Source: a virus
DNA: 64,000 nucleotides
Direction: 5' to 3' (one strand)
IMG/VR virus record: IMGVR_UViG_3300037851_000431
Coordinates: 41,737 to 105,736 of that record
Of the stretch, positions 29,404-60,883 are shown piece after piece; the first letter of the stretch is position 1; each line of letters opens with the position of its first letter. Made by a program: the position numbers and the translations under genes. The notes under the pieces were generated by a model. That model ran no database searches, had not been told where the DNA came from, and saw only the letters and a list, made by a program, of their open reading frames with translations.

Positions 29404-29607
29404 ATGGTAAAATGGCAGATAGAAGCCTCATTAGATAAGGATTATATTTTTAAATTGGCTGAACTAAAGGGTTGGTATGATACCCCTCCCAAAGTACAGA
29501 TTAAAAAAATTCGTGGAGCGGAAGAAGTTTGGTGGGTTATAGAACCGTATGAAGAAGGTTGCAATTGTCCTGATTTGGTTCGACCACCTACTAGAAGTAG
29601 GGGATAA
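29404..29607 (+). CDS. Hypothetical protein
   Basis: Tightly packed in the operon. Confidence 0.45.
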   Translation: MVKWQIEASLDKDYIFKLAELKGWYDTPPKVQIKKIRGAEEVWWVIEPYEEGCNCPDLVRPPTRSRG

Positions 29608-29610
29608 GGT

Positions 29611-30792
29611 ATGAAAATATTGTTTGTAGGCGACTCACCCACAGTTGAGACTGGTTTTGGCGTGGTTGCACGTAATCTGCTACCAAGATTACAAGGCTTA
29701 GGACATGAAATTCATGCTCTAGGAGTTAATTATTATGGTGATCCATACGATCAACGCAGATTTTCTTTCCCCATTGTTCCTGTTGATCATGGAAATATTG
29801 ATTTAATGTACGGGTATAGAAAACTGTGGGAAGTAGAAGATCGTGTTAAACCAGATTTACTTTTCTTTTTGAATGATCCTTGGATTATACAAAAATATAT
29901 GCAGCATAAACCTCCTAATCATAGCAGGTATTATAAATCTTTAGCATATTTTCCTATAGATGCTGGCCCATTAAAGCCTGAATGGGCAGAATTATTAAGT
30001 GGGTTCGATGCTCAGGTCTGTTATTCTAATTTTGCAGAGCGTGTTGTAATAGAAGCTAATAATAATAAGCGTCCTGATAATCTATATCAGATATATCATG
30101 GAGTAGATACAAAAACTTTCTTCCCTGTTAATCAGTCAATAGCAAGAGAAAAATTAGAACTTCCACAGGAATCTTTTATTATAGGTATGGTAGCAAGAAA
30201 CCAGTATCGAAAGAGATTTGATATACTAGTTAAAGCGTTCTCGATCTTTGCTAAAGATAAACCTAATGCTAAACTGTATTTACACACAGGGATAAAAGAT
30301 GTGGGGTTTGATATAGCCGATTTATCGAGGCAATTTAAGTTGGGGGAGAAATTAATTCTTACCGAGGGTATGGATGTACAGCAACCTATACCAGTAGAAG
30401 CATTAAATTTAATTTATAACTCTTGGGATGTAAATACACTTATAAGTTTAGGTGATGGGTTTGGATTACCTGTAGCAGAAAGCATGGCTACAGGATGTGT
30501 TCAGTTAGTTAGCGATCACTCATGTCTGAAAGAATTAGTAGACGGTCACGGTGGGTTAACGGTTAAAACAGCAGCATGGATGTTAAATACAAATGGTATT
30601 AATACTTGGGGAGGAGTTTCAGATGTGGATGATCTTGTGGATAAACTATCAATTCTTTACGCGAACAAAAATTTAAGAATAAAGATGGCGGAAGAAGGCT
30701 ATGAATTTATAACACAGGAAAAATTCTCTTGGGATTTTGCTGCCAGTGAGTTTCATAAGATAATAAAAGATATATTTCATCTGGTGAAATAA
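29611..30792 (+). CDS. Glycosyltransferase, GT4 family
   Basis: MKILFVGD...TGFG; HGVDTKTF; VARNQYRKR; GDGFGLPVAESMATG. Confidence 0.92.
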   Translation: MKILFVGDSPTVETGFGVVARNLLPRLQGLGHEIHALGVNYYGDPYDQRRFSFPIVPVDHGNIDLMYGYRKLWEVEDRVKPDLLFFLNDPWIIQKYMQHKPPNHSRYYKSLAYFPIDAGPLKPEWAELLSGFDAQVCYSNFAERVVIEANNNKRPDNLYQIYHGVDTKTFFPVNQSIAREKLELPQESFIIGMVARNQYRKRFDILVKAFSIFAKDKPNAKLYLHTGIKDVGFDIADLSRQFKLGEKLILTEGMDVQQPIPVEALNLIYNSWDVNTLISLGDGFGLPVAESMATGCVQLVSDHSCLKELVDGHGGLTVKTAAWMLNTNGINTWGGVSDVDDLVDKLSILYANKNLRIKMAEEGYEFITQEKFSWDFAASEFHKIIKDIFHLVK

Positions 30793-30795
30793 ACT

Positions 30796-31488
30796 ATGAG
30801 ACAGGCTTTAGTTATAGTAACATGGGCAGGAAATCTAGATGAAACTTTACCACCACTTTTAACTTCTTTAGAAAGATATCATAAAGTTCCTATTGTAGTT
30901 GTAGTAAATGAAGCAAAGCTTTTAAATGAAAATGTCAGGGAGTTTTTAAATAATCATTACATCTTACTAGAAAATAAGGAAGATTTATGGGAGTGTGGAG
31001 CAATCTACTCTGTATTAAAAAATACAGATTTTGATGAGTTTATTTTATTACAGGATACAATGATTGTAATTAATCCAACAGTATTTAATGTTATGTTTGA
31101 TATGAAAGATACTACTGTAACATTAGGTAAAGAGTGGAGATGTTATCTAGGAAAATATAGACGGAAAGTTTTAGAAAAACTTCGAATACCTAAGACAACA
31201 ACAAAATTACACTCTATGGTACAGGAAGTTGCATTGGCTTATTTTTATATCAAAGCAGCTACAGATGAACCCTACCTTCATTATTTATGTGAAGATTGGG
31301 GGGATGATAATCCTAATAATAAAATAGTTGAATTTTATGGGAGAAAGAATCTTGTATTAGACAATCCATATATATTAAAATATAAAGCTACGGTTGCAAC
31401 AGCCAAAGAGGGTGCATTTGCTACAACAAATATTACATGGGAAGAATTAACAGACAATTGGAATAAAACAGGAGATTATTTTAACTAG
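30796..31488 (+). CDS. Putative GT-A-fold glycosyltransferase
   Basis: N-terminal LVIVTW, WECGAI and FILLQDT (DxD-like position); adjacent to the GT4 gene. Confidence 0.55.
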   Translation: MRQALVIVTWAGNLDETLPPLLTSLERYHKVPIVVVVNEAKLLNENVREFLNNHYILLENKEDLWECGAIYSVLKNTDFDEFILLQDTMIVINPTVFNVMFDMKDTTVTLGKEWRCYLGKYRRKVLEKLRIPKTTTKLHSMVQEVALAYFYIKAATDEPYLHYLCEDWGDDNPNNKIVEFYGRKNLVLDNPYILKYKATVATAKEGAFATTNITWEELTDNWNKTGDYFN

Positions 31489-31499
31489 GAGGTGATTAC

Positions 31500-32138
31500 A
31501 TGGCATCAACAAACATATTAGACTACACACCAAAATTTCAATTTGGTCAGGCGGGAGTACCTTGGGCGCTTCAAAAAGTAGCTTGTACTGATACTTGTGT
31601 TCAAATGATTATTAATTATTATAAGGATAGATACATAAGTCTTAATGAAGTTAGAAAAGACTCGGGTGTTGCTCCTTATGGAACAGGTTTAACAGTCACT
31701 CAAGCTTTAAAATCATTAAGTGCTAACGGAGTAACACATTATAGATGGACACTAGGATATGATCGAGTATTTATGCTTGGTCGATTAAAGCTGGGTCCGG
31801 TTATTGTATCAACATATTATAAATACTATCCTATTTGGGACGGTAAGAAATGCACAGGTACCAATAAGGCTCAGATAGGAGGAAAAACTGATTGCTACTT
31901 TACTGGTGCCCATGCAGTACTGGTAATCAAGGCGATACCTGTTTATTCTGATGGAAAATTACTTAGATATGATTATCTTGTACGCGATCCAGATCATAAT
32001 TCTCCCGGTCGTCCAGAAAAGCCTAAGTATGATCGAATGACAGAAACACAGTTAAAGAGGGCAATGGAGTATATAAAGTATCTTCCTGTATGGGAAAAAC
32101 CGTCTGTTATGTATCCAACACAGAGAAAAATATTATAG
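31500..32138 (+). CDS. Peptidase C39-like cysteine hydrolase, putative endolysin
   Basis: Q..ACTDTCVQMII, GAHAVLV and VRDPD suggest a Cys-His-Asp triad; next to the holin. Confidence 0.7.
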   Translation: MASTNILDYTPKFQFGQAGVPWALQKVACTDTCVQMIINYYKDRYISLNEVRKDSGVAPYGTGLTVTQALKSLSANGVTHYRWTLGYDRVFMLGRLKLGPVIVSTYYKYYPIWDGKKCTGTNKAQIGGKTDCYFTGAHAVLVIKAIPVYSDGKLLRYDYLVRDPDHNSPGRPEKPKYDRMTETQLKRAMEYIKYLPVWEKPSVMYPTQRKIL

Positions 32139-32141
32139 GAG

Positions 32142-32426
32142 ATGATAAATATGCCACAAGGTATTCTTGTCCCGTATACGCTGCTTGAAAAAGTACCAGC
32201 GTGGGCAAATCTAAATCCAGCAACTAAGGCTGTCTTATTAAGAGCAATTAAAGCAGCCGTTGCTACATTTATTTCTATTCTATTAGCTGCTGCTACAGCA
32301 GGAGTATTATTTCCTGTTGAATGGAGTCCTGTAGTAGTTATTGCTATCACTACAATTCTACAGACAATAGACAAGGCTCTACGATCAACACCGGATGAGC
32401 CACCACCAACTGATCCTACTGAATAG
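32142..32426 (+). CDS. Putative holin
   Basis: Small protein with two hydrophobic helices and a charged tail, after the lysin. Confidence 0.65.
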   Translation: MINMPQGILVPYTLLEKVPAWANLNPATKAVLLRAIKAAVATFISILLAAATAGVLFPVEWSPVVVIAITTILQTIDKALRSTPDEPPPTDPTE

Positions 32427-32430
32427 TTAG

Positions 32431-32460
32431 CTAAGGGAGCCTAGCGGCTCCCTTAGTATA
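32431..32460. terminator. Hairpin terminator ending the late operon (possibly bidirectional)
   Basis: 10-bp perfect stem CTAAGGGAGC/GCTCCCTTAG. Confidence 0.65.
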
Positions 32461-32586
32461 TATAATACATATTATTATATTATAATAGTAAAATAAGACG
32501 GGTTGAAACCGGACCTGTTCAGAGTCTATGATGAAAGCAGAGCAGGGACGGGAAACTTCGACCGAAGGCAAGGAGGCTTCGTAACC

Positions 32587-48607: not shown

Positions 48608-49071
48608 TATTTCTCCTTAGCAGTAAAAATCATCAAACCACTTCGCTCATCCCAAGCAACATTCATGATATTTGACATATCAGGAAATTTAACTTTGGGA
48701 AGTTTGCGCCCTTCCTCTTCAGGAAGTTTTTCAGATTCCTCAAACTCTTTAAAGTTAAACCAGCCTCTTCCAAAACAAGTAAATACAACTTCTTTTCGTT
48801 CGCGGGAAAAGGTATAGGCAAAATCTGTTGTGCGGGAATTCTCCCAAGGCCACGGCCACCCCATTTGAGGGTATGTTACATCATCGCGCCCTGAAAAGAA
48901 ATCAACGAGAAATTTACGATAGGTTTCCTCGCTATCACAGTCGGTTAGATATTTAGTATTACCTTCTTTGTCCTTAATATACACCCCTTCGGGATAACCA
49001 TCCCAAGCAATGGATGCGATCCAAACTAACTTGTCTTCTGTATCAAGATAAAAATCTGCCCTTGTACCCAT
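48607..49071 (-). CDS. Conserved phage hypothetical protein
   Basis: MGTRADFY...WDGYP motif. Confidence 0.6.
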   Translation of the reverse strand: MGTRADFYLDTEDKLVWIASIAWDGYPEGVYIKDKEGNTKYLTDCDSEETYRKFLVDFFSGRDDVTYPQMGWPWPWENSRTTDFAYTFSRERKEVVFTCFGRGWFNFKEFEESEKLPEEEGRKLPKVKFPDMSNIMNVAWDERSGLMIFTAKEK

Positions 49072-49171
49072 TTATTACCACTCGTCATCATCTAGATCAA
49101 TTCTGAATAGTCCAATTAATAGGACTAAACAAAAGATAAACGCAAAGAATTCCATATATCACCAAATAAAC

Positions 49172-49224
49172 TCAGCCCGATAGATCATACAACATTTTCT
49201 TTATTGTACAATCTATCGGGCTGA
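49172..49224. other. Long hairpin (terminator or processing site)
   Basis: 14-bp inverted repeat TCAGCCCGATAGAT/ATCTATCGGGCTGA plus inner TACAA/TTGTA. Confidence 0.7.
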
Positions 49225-49264
49225 AATTTTAGTTACAAGTTAGAGGGAACCGGACCCGGTATAT

Positions 49265-49837
49265 TCACTTGCTTGAAAGTGTATTCTTGATAAGTGCCTG
49301 AAGACGCTCCAACTCGTCGGAGTTAACATCCTTAAGCACAGTCTCATCCAATTCGGAAAGGTTATCCAGCCGGAACACCTTCCGCTTGGGACCACGCCGA
49401 GTCTTGACACCAAGAGTGCCCTTATACCCAGCAACCGCTGAACGAACATAAGCGGGAGCCTTTGCGGTGCCCTCTTCCACAGACCCACGGAAATACTGAA
49501 CCATAAAGTTAGTCATTTCCTGTGAGTTAGCGAAATCATCGGGAGGATTACCATTGATCCAGAGGATCGCAGGGAACAACTCCACGCGCCGGTCACGCTT
49601 AGAAATATCGGTGATAATCTGCTCAGGATCGTAACCGTCCTTAACGGTAAATCCTTCAGCGATAACACCCTCCGGGGTCACAGCCCAATTCTGCACACGC
49701 CCGCCGAAAAAGTGGTAAATACCCTTCCATGCGGCGAGAACAGATTTAGACTGCTCCGGGGTAAGAATAAGGGGATCAGCAATCGGAAGCATAATCTCTT
49801 CCATAACTGTATCCGTATCAGTCTTGCGAGTAGCCAT
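49265..49837 (-). CDS. Hypothetical protein, first gene of the leftward block
   Basis: 190 aa, SD AAAGGA, preceded by its own promoters. Confidence 0.75.
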   Translation of the reverse strand: MATRKTDTDTVMEEIMLPIADPLILTPEQSKSVLAAWKGIYHFFGGRVQNWAVTPEGVIAEGFTVKDGYDPEQIITDISKRDRRVELFPAILWINGNPPDDFANSQEMTNFMVQYFRGSVEEGTAKAPAYVRSAVAGYKGTLGVKTRRGPKRKVFRLDNLSELDETVLKDVNSDELERLQALIKNTLSSK

Positions 49838-50463: not shown

Positions 50464-51090
50464 ATGAGCCTCGATGTTTCGGCTTTGCTTGCCGAAGCAA
50501 AAGCCCTTGGTATGTATGAGGAAGCAAAGCCTCGTAAAAGGGCAATTACCATCAGGCGATATAATGTCACAGTAGATGGTAAAATCGTAGCCCAATTCTG
50601 CACCATAAACGATGTGCGAACGCTTCGTCAACATTATCGGGAGCAAGGAAAGTCAATTGTAATTGATGAGGTTTACACCCTCGATGGAAATTACAAAGAC
50701 ATTTCTAATCTCCCTCCCGCTGATCTTCCCAAAGTCGGAAAATATTCGGTAGCAGAAATCAAGGGCATTCAAAACTTCGCAACCCCCACAATTACGGAGC
50801 AAAAAGAAAAGTCAAAGCGCCGGAACAAGAGAAATCAGCAAAAGGTAGTCTGTACTACCAGAGTCATCGAAAACCCTTGGCGAAATCCTAACTCTTCTCT
50901 TCATAAGGAATATATGAAAGGAGTGATAAGGGACGGGTTTATCGTAACTCATAAGGAAAGCGGACAAATCCTCTTTTGGGGGCAAAGAAAGGAAGTCATT
51001 GACTATCTGAAGGATTATTCAGGAGACATTAGCCAAATCAAATGTCTCTCCTTTACAAAGCAAGCACAAAAGAAATACGGGCTAATGTAA
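50464..51090 (+). CDS. Basic hypothetical early protein
   Basis: First gene after the promoter; SD AAGGT. Confidence 0.65.
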   Translation: MSLDVSALLAEAKALGMYEEAKPRKRAITIRRYNVTVDGKIVAQFCTINDVRTLRQHYREQGKSIVIDEVYTLDGNYKDISNLPPADLPKVGKYSVAEIKGIQNFATPTITEQKEKSKRRNKRNQQKVVCTTRVIENPWRNPNSSLHKEYMKGVIRDGFIVTHKESGQILFWGQRKEVIDYLKDYSGDISQIKCLSFTKQAQKKYGLM

Positions 51091-51098
51091 AAAATGGA

Positions 51099-51128
51099 TG
51101 GACAAGCAGACCGCGTTTCTGCTATAAT
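51099..51128 (+). promoter_or_regulatory. Sigma70-type promoter
   Basis: TGGACA-N18-TATAAT with TG extension. Confidence 0.7.
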
Positions 51129-51201
51129 TGGGGTAGCCATCGTGGTATTACTTATCACGATGGTTGCCCTAAAGTTTATCTCAGGGCAATGGAGTTTCTA
51201 A

Positions 51202-51594
51202 ATGCCGAAGATTGTAGTGGATAGAATTTGGATTGGCACAGATCAAGATGATGAGGATGATCCTGCCAATTGGAAAGAATTATCTATTCCGGCAAAGTAT
51301 GAAGTTTGTCCTGATTGTGAAGGTGAGGGTACATCAAGTGCCTATCTTGGAGCCTTTACTTGGGATCAAATCGATGAATTAGGAGATGACTTTAGGGAAG
51401 ACTATTTTGCTGGTCGATATGATAGGTTGTGCGAAACCTGTAAAGGGGAGCGAGTAGTCCCTATCCCCGATAGAGAAAATGCCGATCCTGAAATTCTCAA
51501 AATGTATGATGAAATTCAGGATGAGGAGAGACAAAGCGAACAAATGCATCGAATGGAGATGCAAGCCGAATACGGCCCCGATTATATGTGGTAA
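51202..51594 (+). CDS. Zn-finger phage protein
   Basis: CPDCEGEG...CETCKGE motifs. Confidence 0.7.
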   Translation: MPKIVVDRIWIGTDQDDEDDPANWKELSIPAKYEVCPDCEGEGTSSAYLGAFTWDQIDELGDDFREDYFAGRYDRLCETCKGERVVPIPDRENADPEILKMYDEIQDEERQSEQMHRMEMQAEYGPDYMW

Positions 51595-51600
51595 GGAAAA

Positions 51601-51846
51601 ATGACACAGGGAATTTTTATCAACTACCGAAGGCCCAAGTCAAAGAAGGAGGTCATTGAAGCAGTCAAGACTAATCCTGAAAGTGTTAGTCTTGAAGCAA
51701 CATCATTCTTTGGCAATGAGTATGACGGTCCAATCACAGAAATGCCTGAGAATAAGATGGTGTTTGTGGTTGGTCCCGATCCTGCTACTAAGCGTAATTT
51801 CTATCTCAATGTAACCCGTGTGGGTAACAAGTTTACTGTAAAGTAA
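51601..51846 (+). CDS. Conserved phage hypothetical protein
   Basis: PKSKKE...SFFGNEYDG...VGPDP motif. Confidence 0.65.
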   Translation: MTQGIFINYRRPKSKKEVIEAVKTNPESVSLEATSFFGNEYDGPITEMPENKMVFVVGPDPATKRNFYLNVTRVGNKFTVK

Positions 51847-51860
51847 AGAAAGGTTGGGAA

Positions 51861-52253
51861 ATGGAAGCCGAAAAGCCTGAGTGCCGTCACTACTCAATCA
51901 AGGATGAGGAAGGTGTTTCGTATTGCCGCGATTGCCTTCTTATCCATATCCCCGAAAAGTTTTGGTACGGCGAAATCAAGATCGGTCAGCTTTCGAATAG
52001 GTTCGAACATACTACGGTCGATTTCGATTTCAAAGACCTGATCGAATTGCAGCTTGGTACATCCGTTGAGTTGACGAATATTATCAAGACTGAAAAGTCT
52101 GATCGCTATTGGGCACAGTCTTATATCGTTTGGTATAAGATTGGACGATCAGAAATGTCTGCTAGTGTTGACGATCTAACCCGTGGTACTCGATATAACC
52201 CGACTAACAGGTTCTACGAGCCTAAGTTGGAAGTGGTCGAGGAAACCACCTAA
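51861..52253 (+). CDS. Hypothetical protein
   Basis: SD present; CRH...CRDC. Confidence 0.6.
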   Translation: MEAEKPECRHYSIKDEEGVSYCRDCLLIHIPEKFWYGEIKIGQLSNRFEHTTVDFDFKDLIELQLGTSVELTNIIKTEKSDRYWAQSYIVWYKIGRSEMSASVDDLTRGTRYNPTNRFYEPKLEVVEETT

Positions 52254-52260
52254 ATTTGGG

Positions 52261-53057
52261 GGAGCCGCGATCTTACAGTAAAGGAGGTGAAAAGCAATCT
52301 ATATTGTAATGAAATGCGGCTCCTGTCCTGAAAAGCAGTATTTCGGTAAACTTGTCGAAAAGGGCAAGGAAAATACTGCTAAGTGCCCTAACTGCGGGCA
52401 CAAACTTATCGTCGTGGCAAACGATAAGTAACTACATAATGGCGAAGGTTAGGTTGGCTAGACCTAATCTATTCGATGCCCCGAGAATTATGCCTGTGAC
52501 GACAGGCTTTGGGGATAGCCCATCGAATAGGAAGCCGAAAACTGAGCCTTAGGCTTAGGGTTTCGGGCCAGATTTATTAGGCTAGGATACGAGAAAGTAC
52601 GATCTGGTGCAAGTATCGTCGTATAAATGCCTAGCGAGTCGGTCAATGCGTAAACCGACATTATTAATAAATTATGTGTTGAGTAGAGAACAACACGAAG
52701 CAGTACTATAAGGCTCTGATCGATCCATCCTTATACCTGTGGATATGGCCTACCGGACACATAATTTAGAGTACGCTACTGGTAGAATTACTGGTCATGA
52801 ACAGAGAAGAGCCAGTCTCAATGCGTATACTGTGGATTATGAAGTGATATCCATATTAAAGTCTAAGAGTACGATAGGTTCCTTTGGCGTAGTCAATAGA
52901 TAGGGTAGCGAGCTGCAAATCGTCCTATCGAAAAGAACCTCACAATGCGTACACTGCCCGATCAATTATGTGATATCGGGCATCCGAATTATAAAGGCTT
53001 CCAGCGGGCAGTATTATATTTTATTTTAATCCAAACACTGCCCGCTAGAGTCCTTTA
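52261..53057 (+). ncRNA. Putative large structured non-coding RNA (about 800 nt), family unassigned
   Basis: More than 15 consecutive helices and two covarying copies of one module; no long ORF in a gene-dense region. Confidence 0.75.
52309..52431 (+). CDS. 40-aa Zn-ribbon peptide inside the structured RNA (not in ORF track)
   Basis: MKCGSC...KCPNCGHKL; AAGGAGGTGA upstream. Confidence 0.55.
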   Translation: MKCGSCPEKQYFGKLVEKGKENTAKCPNCGHKLIVVANDK

Positions 53058-53069
53058 TTAGAGGTTAGT

Positions 53070-53420
53070 ATGTACCGACGAATTCAACTAATTAATCACT
53101 ACGATCCTAAGAAACATGAACACGAACAAAACGACTTCATCCATGGGTTGATGGGTATTTGTAATAGTGTTGAGATTGCAGATGCGTGGACCTATAAATT
53201 GCGCGGTTCAAATCACGCTCTACCCACCAATGCACGATTTTATTTTACAGAGAAGGGTTGGAAGGAAGTTGGACGAGAAGTAATTGCCGCTTGTCAGCGA
53301 TCAGGTCAAGACTATAGAGTTATTAAAGTCAAAGAGACTGACGCGCAAGTTGTTTGGCGAGATAAGTATACTGAATATGAAGTTGCTATCCAGCCTAAAA
53401 GAAAGGTAAGTAAGAAGTAG
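53070..53420 (+). CDS. Hypothetical protein
   Basis: SD GAGGT; RFYFTEKGW. Confidence 0.6.
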   Translation: MYRRIQLINHYDPKKHEHEQNDFIHGLMGICNSVEIADAWTYKLRGSNHALPTNARFYFTEKGWKEVGREVIAACQRSGQDYRVIKVKETDAQVVWRDKYTEYEVAIQPKRKVSKK

Positions 53421-53720
53421 ATGAAGCGCGGAATTCCCGTCACATTTTCTACTTGCCGCAAAGAGCATGGCAAGTGTGATATTTGCTTGCAACCCATCAA
53501 ACCCGGTGAAAAGTATATTCGGGTTGTTATTCCCCCGTGGGAAAGTGAGATAGAATTCGTATTCAACGATTTTGGGCAAATTATTAATTCTTGGTACATT
53601 AACTCCCACAAATGGGAAGTCCATGAAACTCACGAAAAGTGCGAGAAATGGCGCGCAGAAGAGATGCGCGAAGCCGAGATGGATTTGGAGTGGGAAACTC
53701 CCTTGGAGTATGATTACTAA
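53421..53720 (+). CDS. Zn-binding hypothetical protein
   Basis: RKEH.KCDIC..IKPGEKY...HEKC motif. Confidence 0.6.
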   Translation: MKRGIPVTFSTCRKEHGKCDICLQPIKPGEKYIRVVIPPWESEIEFVFNDFGQIINSWYINSHKWEVHETHEKCEKWRAEEMREAEMDLEWETPLEYDY

Positions 53721-56063: not shown

Positions 56064-56550
56064 TAAGAAATTTGCACTCTCTGGTGGATTTACCGATCTT
56101 CCTAAAGATATTGCCTACCTTTCGACGCTAGGCGTCGTCGCAATTCTTGATGTAGGAATGACGCCTGACGACGATTATATTGCAATGGGTTTGTATATTG
56201 AGAATGAATGTGCCAAGGAGGAGATTGAATACGATTATATTCCTATGAGGGACGACGAATTTAATGACGATATTCACGAAGATTGGCGAGAAGCGGCAAA
56301 TATTCTTGCCGATTGGGTAAAGCGTTATCCCAATCGTCGTCAATTTATTCTCATTAAATGTGCAACAGGTATTAGTAGGTCTGCCTCTGTATTGATCTAC
56401 TATCTATGTAGAGAGCAGCGTATGTCCTACATAGAAGCCCTAGGTTATGTTAGGAATGCAGAGAGTGGCCAAACTGAATTTGGCGTCAGTCTAAACAATT
56501 ACTTCCATAATCAGTTGAAAGGTATGTTCAAGGATTACACATATGACTAG
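56041..56550 (+). CDS. Dual-specificity/tyrosine phosphatase family protein
   Basis: IPMRD general-acid loop and KCATGISRS (CX5R). Confidence 0.85.
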   Translation: MLNLRFIDKKFALSGGFTDLPKDIAYLSTLGVVAILDVGMTPDDDYIAMGLYIENECAKEEIEYDYIPMRDDEFNDDIHEDWREAANILADWVKRYPNRRQFILIKCATGISRSASVLIYYLCREQRMSYIEALGYVRNAESGQTEFGVSLNNYFHNQLKGMFKDYTYD

Positions 56551-59333: not shown

Positions 59334-59883
59334 CCCGGAAACAATTTATCATGGTCCCTATGAAATTCGTATCAAGCGGCTGCGTCCTAAGAAGGTAACT
59401 AATGATTGGGGCAAGCCGCTAAACGATCCACTTGTTGCTGCAACTATTGGATATAATCTAACCAAAGATGAGGATCAGGAGGTTATGTATGTAATCGGCC
59501 TAGATGCCTCTGAGCGAGTCCTATACATTCAAGAGATTTATCGTGGTACGAATGCGAAAATTTCGGTAAGGATCGCAGAGTTACTAAGGGCAGCAGTAAT
59601 TGAGAATGCACGACGAGTCATTGTTTTGCACAATCACCCTGCCGGTGATCCTACTCCTAGTGCCGAAGATATTGACACCTTGACAAAATTGGTAGAAGGT
59701 GGTAAAGTACTAGGTATCGAAATCTACGATTACCAAGTCGTGTGCGATGATCCCAATAAGTTTTGGTCCGGTGCAGTAGCAGTTGCTCCTAATCTAATGC
59801 TAGGCGATCTAAGTAAGTTGGATGTAAGTAATGGGCTTATTGACCGAGATTTGCTACGACAGCAAATGTCCCCTTCAAGTTAA
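59326..59883 (+). CDS. radC: RadC-like JAB-domain protein
   Basis: QEVMYVIGLD, HNHPAGDPTPSAEDI and LGIEIYD motifs. Confidence 0.9.
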   Translation: MANPETIYHGPYEIRIKRLRPKKVTNDWGKPLNDPLVAATIGYNLTKDEDQEVMYVIGLDASERVLYIQEIYRGTNAKISVRIAELLRAAVIENARRVIVLHNHPAGDPTPSAEDIDTLTKLVEGGKVLGIEIYDYQVVCDDPNKFWSGAVAVAPNLMLGDLSKLDVSNGLIDRDLLRQQMSPSS

Positions 59884-60151
59884 ATATCCTCACTATATTG
59901 ATGAGTCTCCAATTCCCGATTCCGATACTCGCGTGAATTGGGAATTGGAGCAAATCAAACATAGACGGGGAAATGTGTGTTGGAAGTGTAAAACCTACCT
60001 AACACCTAAAGATCAAGATCATACATTCTGTAATCCTTGTTGGAATCGAATGAACAAGGATGATATTTGTACAGTTTGTGGGGAATTTGAAGAGTACGGT
60101 CATCACATATTTGAACCTTATGTTCCAGATTACATGGATGAGGGTAATTAA
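59831..60151 (+). CDS. Cys-rich Zn-finger protein
   Basis: CWKC, CNPC and CTVC motifs; start uncertain. Confidence 0.5.
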   Translation: MGLLTEICYDSKCPLQVKYPHYIDESPIPDSDTRVNWELEQIKHRRGNVCWKCKTYLTPKDQDHTFCNPCWNRMNKDDICTVCGEFEEYGHHIFEPYVPDYMDEGN

Positions 60152-60156
60152 TTAAG

Positions 60157-60435
60157 ATGGTACAAATCCACGATCATATTGATGAGAAATATATCAATAC
60201 TGATAAGTGGGAAATTAGTTGTCCAGTATGTGAGGATGAAATAGAAGCTGAATATACTGGCACTGAATGGATTTGCAGGGCTTGTGGATACCGTACAGAC
60301 GGCCCTGAGGGCATTGTGAATGTCACAGAGCGCGACTATTACCGATGGGAATGGGAGCGTGGTAAGGAAGAACGAGAATTCTACAAGGAATTCGAAACCC
60401 CAAATGATAGGGAGGAACTCTTTGATGGAATTTGA
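60157..60435 (+). CDS. Acidic Zn-ribbon protein
   Basis: CPVC...WICRACG. Confidence 0.6.
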   Translation: MVQIHDHIDEKYINTDKWEISCPVCEDEIEAEYTGTEWICRACGYRTDGPEGIVNVTERDYYRWEWERGKEEREFYKEFETPNDREELFDGI

Positions 60436-60883
60436 TCCCATCTATGACGATATGGGAGAAATCATTCGTTATAGATGGAATATCGAGGCATGGCTAAATA
60501 GCCTATCTCCTGCCAAACGCAGAAACCATGATCGCAGAATGCGGGTACTTAACCTTGTAGGTAAACTGTATAATAATGTACCGTGGATGCGTTGGCCTAT
60601 TCTAAAGGTTGTTTACGCATTTTGGCACAATCTATTTGAACACGGTATTAAAGATACTATCAAGCCTAGATGGGGAATGATGACATTTGCCTATCTAAAT
60701 GATGGTATCAAGCCTACTGTTTGGCACACTTTCTGGCAAATTACACACGGCTTTAATCATAAGTATAGTGGTATCTACCCTCAGGGTGCGCCTCACAGTC
60801 TAAAACAGGCACAGGAATGGGAACGTGAGTGGGAACAGAAAAGATTGCTCCAACAGGCACTTGATGAAGGGATATTTCTATGA
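60425..60883 (+). CDS. Trp-rich hypothetical protein
   Basis: GGAGG SD before ATG 60425. Confidence 0.55.
   Translation: MEFDPIYDDMGEIIRYRWNIEAWLNSLSPAKRRNHDRRMRVLNLVGKLYNNVPWMRWPILKVVYAFWHNLFEHGIKDTIKPRWGMMTFAYLNDGIKPTVWHTFWQITHGFNHKYSGIYPQGAPHSLKQAQEWEREWEQKRLLQQALDEGIFL

Follow-up and report, generated by a model that had tools for sequence, protein, structure and literature searches.

The window analysed here is a stretch of 64,000 nucleotides (nt), the last 64 kb of the 105.7-kb IMG/VR phage record IMGVR_UViG_3300037851_000431 (G000), and the element in question is a gap at 52254-53069 in one of its + strand operons. An earlier note, made from the sequence alone, had taken this gap for one RNA of about 800 nt paired almost from end to end. 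We found that a conserved protein gene takes up the first ~180 nt and that the rest is a string of separable modules, not one fixed 800-nt RNA. The first of these, which we call module A (52440-52570, + strand), is predicted to form a pseudoknotted four-way-junction RNA. It was found in five copies in four phages: once in the window, twice in the nearest relative G001 (copies A1 and A2), once in the further phage fragment L024 and once in the complete relative G009. On the structural predictions and searches described below, module A is a new RNA family relative to Rfam 15 and to the stable-RNA regions of T4 and T5.

Architecture of module A

Module A is supported by its minimum free energy (MFE) fold, by a folding z-score of -5.3 and by covariance-model matches. 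It begins with P1 (52440-52443 with 52567-52570), followed by an unpaired GAAG (J1/2, 52444-52447), P2 (52448-52468, loop 52456-52460), P3 (52469-52478 with 52521-52530) carrying P4 (52479-52482 with 52511-52514, tip hairpin 52492-52507), a second unpaired GAAG (J3/5, 52531-52534), P5 (52535-52566) and the 3' strand of P1. There is no linker between P2 and P3 or between P5 and P1. P4 continues P3 across a 3' bulge of 6-7 nt, which in the window lies at 52515-52520; at this place G001 A2 has only a hairpin loop closing P3. The tips of P4 and P5 accommodate inserts of 20 to 170 nt. The junction appears as the independent MFE fold of the window copy, L024 and G001 A2, and also within the fold of the G009 gap. 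In the MFE fold of G001 A1, P1, P2 and P5 are retained and the P3 arm deviates.

The P2 loop of the window copy (GGCUA, 52456-52460) is complementary to five bases of the bulge (UAGCC, 52516-52520), and this pairing forms the predicted pseudoknot. GGCUA/UAGCC occurs in three copies, GAGU/ACUC replaces it in G009 and GGGAUU/AAUCCC in G001 A2, where P4 is missing and the partner of the P2 loop is the P3 hairpin loop. Three different sequence pairs at one topological place make a real tertiary pairing probable. The loop-shuffle fractions were 0.006-0.009 for the GGCUA copies, 0.007 for G001 A2 and 0.086 for G009. The predicted pseudoknot would set P2 and P3 side by side and thereby fix the junction.

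Several details of individual copies were also observed. G001 A1 carries two successive 3' strands of P5/P1 (CUCUAGGCCA) about 30 nt apart (L003:1828-1875), so that the helix could be closed in two alternative ways. The P4 tip of G001 A1 (L003:1700-1720) and of L024 (178-196) is a hairpin that exactly resembles the T arm of a transfer RNA (tRNA), with a 5-bp stem and a UUCGAGU or UUCGACU loop; the tip of the window copy is a plain hairpin. A supposed T-loop in G001 A2 was dropped, as the sequence in question is what the P2 loop pairs with in the pseudoknot. We likewise dropped the idea that P5 and GCCA form a tRNA minihelix with a CCA end. GCCA is the 3' strand of P1 and not a discriminator, because G001 A2 lengthens both strands together.

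Conservation and distribution of module A

Covariance models R1 and R3 were used for module A and R2 for another module of the gap, module C. The window copy of module A scored 110 bits (R1), G001 A1 129 bits and L024 141 bits; the divergent copies scored 31.6 bits (G001 A2, E 3e-7) and 32.9 bits (G009, E 3e-8, filters off). The window and G001 share, without a single difference, a 40-nt block comprising J1/2, P2 and the 5' strand of P3. L024 keeps the block too, within a 56-nt match to the window at 94.6% identity. The protein adjoining module A, by comparison, shares just 39% identity between the window and G001.

Base-pair conservation was counted in a model-guided alignment of the five copies. 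In P2, P3 and P4, 98.9% of the cells are paired and six pairs are changed on both sides; such counts were matched in 0 to 1 of 500 shuffles, and sliding the partners by 1-3 columns gave at most one double-changed pair. Outside this alignment, three helices differ in sequence among the copies and stay paired. P4 is CCCC/GGGG, CCGU/GCGG or CCUA/UAGG among the copies, and P5 is CCGAAA/UUUCGG in the window, CUAGAG/CUCUAG in G001 A1 and L024 and UCUAUC/GAUAGG in G009. P1 is found as UGGC/GCCA, as CUGGUC/GGCCAG in G001 A2 and as an 8-bp helix in G009. Conservation of a reading frame between the window and G001 was not found at 52432-53069.

The copies were recovered by different routes. G001, whose syntenic gap measures 1.4 kb, came from a motif scan of IMG/VR and L024 from a metagenome scan; L034 is the same phage as G001. 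The G009 copy was recovered by folding the gap downstream of a conserved 81-aa gene, after which the covariance model matched it with filters off; it is syntenic, lying directly downstream of the homolog of that gene. Beyond G001, L024 and L034, pattern scans of viral, metagenome and genome collections gave chance matches only (among them the rest of L017-L039, L081 and L093-L095). A hand-written structure descriptor applied to four complete or near-complete genomes returned the known copies and one weak false match; in G000, the window copy was its sole match. By BLAST, neither the gap nor the 20 kb around it had a match among 50,697 phage records, and no related loci were found with the downstream 116-aa gene and the 402-aa gene as probes.

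In L024 and G009, module A stands alone. R1 and R2 gave no match to module A or C in 27 related records collected through a capsid-like protein, most of which end before the syntenic region. In the complete genome of a further relative, G028, no copy of module A was found by the descriptor or by R3 with filters off at 60-80 kb, and in six further phages sharing the 81-aa gene, R3 with filters off gave no match within 3.5 kb of it.

The whole G000 record carries 26 tRNA genes spread over several islands, G001 (117 kb) carries 29, and G009 and G028, which are complete and have direct terminal repeats, carry 26 and 25, respectively. G000 and its relatives are T5-sized (105-120 kb), tRNA-rich phages of the lytic type. 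The gap lies 2.6 kb upstream of a lone pair of genes for tRNA-His (55648) and tRNA-Lys (55735), which are the only tRNA calls of ARAGORN and the Rfam tRNA model.

Folding of the gap as a whole

On the + strand, the gap folded at -278.1 kcal/mol as compared with -218 +/- 5 kcal/mol for dinucleotide shuffles (z -12.0). The - strand gave -247.2 kcal/mol (z -7.35), and as both its energy and its z-score are weaker, the + strand is favoured. G-U pairs are conserved in P2 (at both ends), in P1 of A2, in P4 of G001 and in P5 of A2 and G009, and on the other strand these would be A-C mismatches. The wobble pairs of module A therefore function on the + strand only, in agreement with the difference in energy between the strands.

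These results bear out much of what the earlier note had described. The shuffle comparison that it had proposed came out in favour of a structured gap, and its preference for the + strand is upheld by both the energies and the G-U pairs. All the helices that it had listed are present, at the positions it gave or a few bases away: they are 52261/52316, 52334/52371, 52404/52421, 52448/52461, 52469/52521, 52492/52502, 52535/52561, 52581/52630, 52638/52654 and 52669/52756. The pair of repeated modules that it had seen lies at 52768-52865 and 52866-52990, with the closing hairpin after them at 52991-53058. The gap is heavily structured and mostly non-coding, but it is not free of open reading frames (ORFs), as one of 40 aa with a CxxC...CxxC pattern lies at 52309-52431. 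The phage is tRNA-rich, and an undescribed RNA is borne out as far as the Rfam models reach, none of which matched, but a single large non-coding RNA is not, as the modules occur separately.

The structure is unevenly distributed along the gap. When the pieces were folded separately, with 200 shuffles each, the clearly non-random ones were the hairpin in the leader of the 40-aa ORF (z -4.8), the body of that ORF (-6.4), module A and the terminal hairpin (-6.4). Module B (-2.4), the long hairpin H (-2.9), C2 (-2.1) and C1 (-0.7) were weak. In a sliding scan over 20 kb, the three windows across 52100-52699 formed the strongest run (z -6.9 to -8.8), and those across 52550-52999 were unremarkable; folding energy by itself does not set the 3' half apart. 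Other 300-nt + strand windows with z-scores of -5 to -8 were 59750-60049, 56150-56449, 48950-49399, 51050-51349 and 60200-60499, and some of these hold long terminator-like hairpins, for example at 51128-51172.

Other modules of the gap

The ~620 nt at 52436-53058 consist, in order, of modules A and B, the long hairpin H, modules C1 and C2 and the terminal hairpin, all on the + strand. In module B (52581-52659), an inner hairpin is closed off by a stem (52581-52586 with 52630-52635), and after it comes a second hairpin (52638-52659) with the CAAUGCGUA motif in its 10-nt loop. G001 has two copies of this module (L003:1360-1446 and ~2262-2370), and the consensus inner hairpin shows compensatory changes. 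Hairpin H (52669-52767) has an A/U-rich closing stem of 12-13 bp. A long hairpin stands at the same place in the order in G001 (L003:2466-2615, z -6.4); the two could not be aligned.

Module C occurs as two tandem copies in the window and as one in G001, and R2 matches these two phages only. C1 (52768-52865; R2, 90 bits) consists of a closing helix with CAAUGCGUA on its 3' side and a 3' hairpin. C2 (52866-52990; R2, 109 bits) is a paralog of C1 and the ortholog of the G001 copy (L003:2618-2752), with which it shares 86% identity over 50 nt. In the consensus fold of the three, 5 of the 20 pairs are changed on both sides. The terminal hairpin (52991-53058) has about 21 pairs in three stem segments and an A/U-rich loop of 24 nt, and the next gene (53070) has its ribosome-binding site directly after it. 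G001 does not conserve this hairpin, and a clear U tract is missing from it. The terminator scan flagged only the inner part of P5 with AGAUUUAUUA (52552-52569) and left the terminal hairpin unflagged.

The G001 gap contains two copies of module A, two of B and one of C, with a tRNA-Tyr-like gene between the second module B (B2) and the long hairpin. Both phages have their modules in the order A, B, long hairpin, C, and no conserved long-range helix linking the modules was found. The tRNA-Tyr(GUA)-like gene (L003:2377-2462) is a second copy that folds as a cloverleaf, has a long variable arm and encodes its CCA; it shares 79% identity with the canonical phage tRNA-Tyr and shows compensatory changes in its stems, including the anticodon stem. 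ARAGORN does not call it, and Rfam gives it only 23 bits, with the tRNA-Sec model.

The 9-mer CAATGCGTA has three direct copies in the window, 175 and 124 bp apart, and in G001 one copy, one degenerate copy and one inverted copy; it is absent from the module A loci of L024 and G009. Similar matches in G028 were set aside, as they fall within a repetitive coding gene. An insert in the G001 B2 hairpin (L003:2300-2345) is the reverse complement of the CAAUGCGU motif of modules B and C, and from its sequence it could pair with module C in G001. Pairing in cis among the CAAUGCGUA copies was dropped, since the complement is carried by G001 B2 only and none is present in the window.

The zinc-ribbon gene and the genes upstream

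The 40-aa ORF at the 5' end of the gap (52309-52431, + strand) was taken from the ORF list. It encodes CxxC-x19-CxxC with weak matches to zinc-ribbon Pfam families, and its sequence is strongly hairpinned. Its homolog in G001 (L003:1535-1648) keeps the four cysteines and differs by two in-frame one-codon indels and by 7 synonymous and 12 non-synonymous codon differences. From this pattern of conservation, we judge the ORF to be a real gene despite its highly structured messenger RNA (mRNA).

Both the Shine-Dalgarno sequence (52281-52290) of this gene and its ATG (52309) lie inside a leader hairpin (52261-52323, + strand). The outer helix of the hairpin is kept in G001 with one compensatory change from G-C to A-U, as read directly from the sequences. 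Within 52281-52311, the strong ribosome-binding site stands 18-19 nt ahead of the ATG. G001 uses an ATG at normal spacing, and the window has an in-frame ATC (52297) at the aligned position. On this alignment, the window copy may have a non-AUG start, or it may be poorly translated from the helix-buried ATG. At the 3' end of the ORF there is a further hairpin (52404-52429, + strand) with a 9-bp stem; in G001, this position is taken by a 7-bp stem in which two pairs have changed on both strands in a compensatory way, and the encoded residues differ.

Upstream of the gap lies a pair of small genes (51601-51846 and 51861-52253) whose occurrence is linked to that of the RNA. The 81-aa gene of this pair shows 74-79% identity in G001 and G009. 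The 130-aa gene encodes an N-terminal Cys/His cluster and is present in the window, G001 and L024 phages and in a few metagenome proteins; its family was not found in the five largest of the 27 related records. Neither gene had a Pfam, PHROG or PDB-fold match. The AlphaFold model of the 130-aa protein (pLDDT, the predicted local distance difference test, 76) had no PDB match at E < 0.2 by Foldseek.

Proposed role and alternative explanations

We lean, with modest confidence, towards the view that the modules of the gap are processed, trans-acting stable RNAs akin to those of the T4 and T5 tRNA regions. The gap would then be an RNA-gene island in a + strand operon, with the zinc-ribbon gene first and independently folding modules after it. 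The modules would be cut out of the operon transcript, and RNase P and 3' processing could separate the pieces around the G001 tRNA-Tyr-like gene; that a tRNA gene stands within the array there suggests that the transcript is processed into pieces. Alternatively, the RNA of G009 might be made from its own promoter and terminator. By eye, a weak -35 and an extended -10 (TGnTACAAT) are seen in G009 about 45 nt before module A (L085:3740-3850), and a 7-bp G+C-rich stem with a 10-nt loop and a U-rich tract about 95 nt after it (L085:3990-4100). Once released, the modules would act in trans, their invariant junction and loops binding a protein, an RNA or a small ligand, and the CAAUGCGUA motif repeated three times in modules B and C could be a shared binding site. 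A bolder version of this proposal is that module A belongs to an undescribed class of functional RNA, in which a pocket for a small ligand or for a host or phage protein, or else a self-processing site, is pre-organised, and that together with modules B and C (CAAUGCGUA) and the embedded tRNA it makes up a phage RNA system of the standing of GOLLD and ROOL. We regard this as rather unlikely on the present sequences.

Several results weigh against the preferred role of processed, trans-acting RNAs. The consensus scan called no promoter or terminator flanking any copy, and the elements seen by eye in G009 fail its criteria. Only five copies of module A were found, three of them are near-identical in the core and the alignment was fitted to the model; the covariation comes from the two divergent copies, G001 A2 and G009, because the other three vary so little there. 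Modules B, C1 and C2 and hairpin H barely beat shuffles in folding and are known from two phages only. Also, module A is accessory and dispensable, as G028 and the other searchable relatives showed no copy.

The main rival to a role in trans is action in cis on the operon mRNA, with module A as a riboswitch-like or protein-binding regulator or with the hairpins serving processing or stability; we consider this improbable on balance but the explanation to be taken most seriously after our own. Every copy lies within a + strand operon with no promoter called by the scan, the 3' strand of P1 in L024 ends 19 nt ahead of the next start codon, and the zinc-ribbon gene has its ribosome-binding site and ATG hidden in the leader hairpin. 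In addition, parallel helices with a loop contact around a conserved junction are typical of aptamers. However, the downstream context is different each time, as module A is followed by module B in the window, by more RNA in G001, by an ORF in L024 and by a hairpin with a terminator-like stem in G009, and no conserved expression platform overlaps P1. Nor would simple stabilisers call for 40 invariant bases, loops and junctions among them. The idea of one multi-domain ornate RNA of ~600-800 nt, in which the modules are domains and a GOLLD-like variable region can hold tRNAs, agrees with the order of A, B, long hairpin and C, which the window shares with G001, and with the position of the tRNA-Tyr-like gene between B2 and the long hairpin. 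We nevertheless find it less probable still, since module A is alone in L024 and G009, the window and G001 do not carry A, B and C in the same numbers, no conserved helix joins the modules, the first 180 nt are a protein gene and the GOLLD and ROOL models of Rfam are unmatched even at E <= 10.

Two further explanations seem to us very improbable. If the gap acted as DNA, for example as an origin, packaging or recombination region with CAATGCGTA iterons and inverted-repeat cruciforms, the three direct 9-mers and the inverted copy in G001 would suit a DNA-binding site. However, folding strongly favours one strand, the wobble pairs are valid on the + strand only and the helices covary, which such a site would not need; module A lacks the 9-mer in L024 and G009, and no AT-rich unwinding element is present except in the loop of the last hairpin. 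Non-functional debris in a tRNA region prone to recombination, made up of decayed tRNA genes and mobile-element remnants, would explain the T-arm-like P4 tips of G001 A1 and L024, the aberrant tRNA-Tyr of G001 and the variable content between phages, but it does not account for 40 identical bases beside a protein of 39% identity or for helices and a pseudoknot kept through compensatory changes.

Large lytic tRNA-rich phages carry stable structured RNAs whose role has been unexplained since T4 and T5 were sequenced, and GOLLD and ROOL are a precedent for remarkable RNA architectures in phages. To these, module A adds a compact fold supported by covariation, with a defined set of invariant unpaired bases, and at ~130 nt its size is amenable to probing, crystallography, cryo-EM, ligand screens and pull-downs. 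Its patchy, accessory distribution beside tRNA genes fits that of host-interaction or counter-defence cargo, and therefore the partner of module A could inform the purpose of the RNAs of phage tRNA regions. If module A is merely an mRNA processing element, the finding would be of local interest.

Comparison with known systems

The Rfam search that the earlier note had called for yielded no family. GOLLD and ROOL were unmatched over the window at the gathering score, over 51800-53500 at E <= 10 and over the G001 and L024 loci at E <= 1. In line with the failure of the note to recognise a group I or II intron, RNase P or transfer-messenger RNA (tmRNA) core, the Rfam 15 models of these, and those of ribozymes and riboswitches, gave no match at E <= 10 over 51800-53500 and none at permissive thresholds in the G001 and L024 loci, which excludes these families as far as the models reach. 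The sole weak matches at that threshold were chance-level ones of microRNA-type models to the terminal hairpin.

In terms of setting, the gap resembles GOLLD and ROOL, which are phage-encoded, highly structured RNAs of unexplained function, often near tRNA islands, with pseudoknots and variable regions (PMC12286853); the GOLLD linker contains tRNAs (PMC12286853). ROOL (about 580 nt) and GOLLD (over 800 nt), however, are each one contiguous RNA with its domains always together, whereas the conserved unit here is ~130 nt and the modules occur separately. Module A is found alone in two phages, and G001 does not have the same number of modules as the window.

Purine and SAM-I riboswitch aptamers and hammerhead-type ribozymes also have neighbouring helices tied by a loop contact that organises a conserved junction. 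The two GAAG strands and the helix order of module A match none of them, no Rfam riboswitch or ribozyme model matches, and neither an expression platform nor a cleavage site is evident at module A. A catalogue drawn from IMG/VR in 2023, the DNAVirus_N set, lists 8,495 candidate structured RNAs of 29-151 nt with no functions given (PMC10690425). It shares with our study the data source and the kind of object, that is, covarying intergenic structures of uncultured phages, some of which are tRNA-like (PMC10690425).

The closest likeness in size and surroundings is to T4 rnaC and rnaD (species 1 and 2) and to T5 RNAI, RNAIII, RNA1 and RNA2H, which are structured non-coding RNAs of 100-170 nt. In these large lytic phages, the genes for the RNAs are interspersed with those for tRNAs and homing endonucleases and with small ORFs. 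The function of T4 RNAC and RNAD is still described as unknown (PMC9697503), and the T5 annotation calls the products of its stable-RNA genes "stable RNA with unknown functions". R3 with filters off had no match in the RNA genes of T4 (69800-72300) or T5 (29500-32500), the best score of 7.7 bits lying outside the RNA genes. T4 rnaC and T5 RNA1 have a tRNA-type T arm, whereas the window copy of module A has none, its P1 being 4 bp long, its P5 lacking a T loop and its 3' end lacking CCA, and it draws no tRNA call from ARAGORN or Rfam. In genome style the likeness is to T5 in particular, as the phages described here have 105-120 kb and 25-29 tRNAs.

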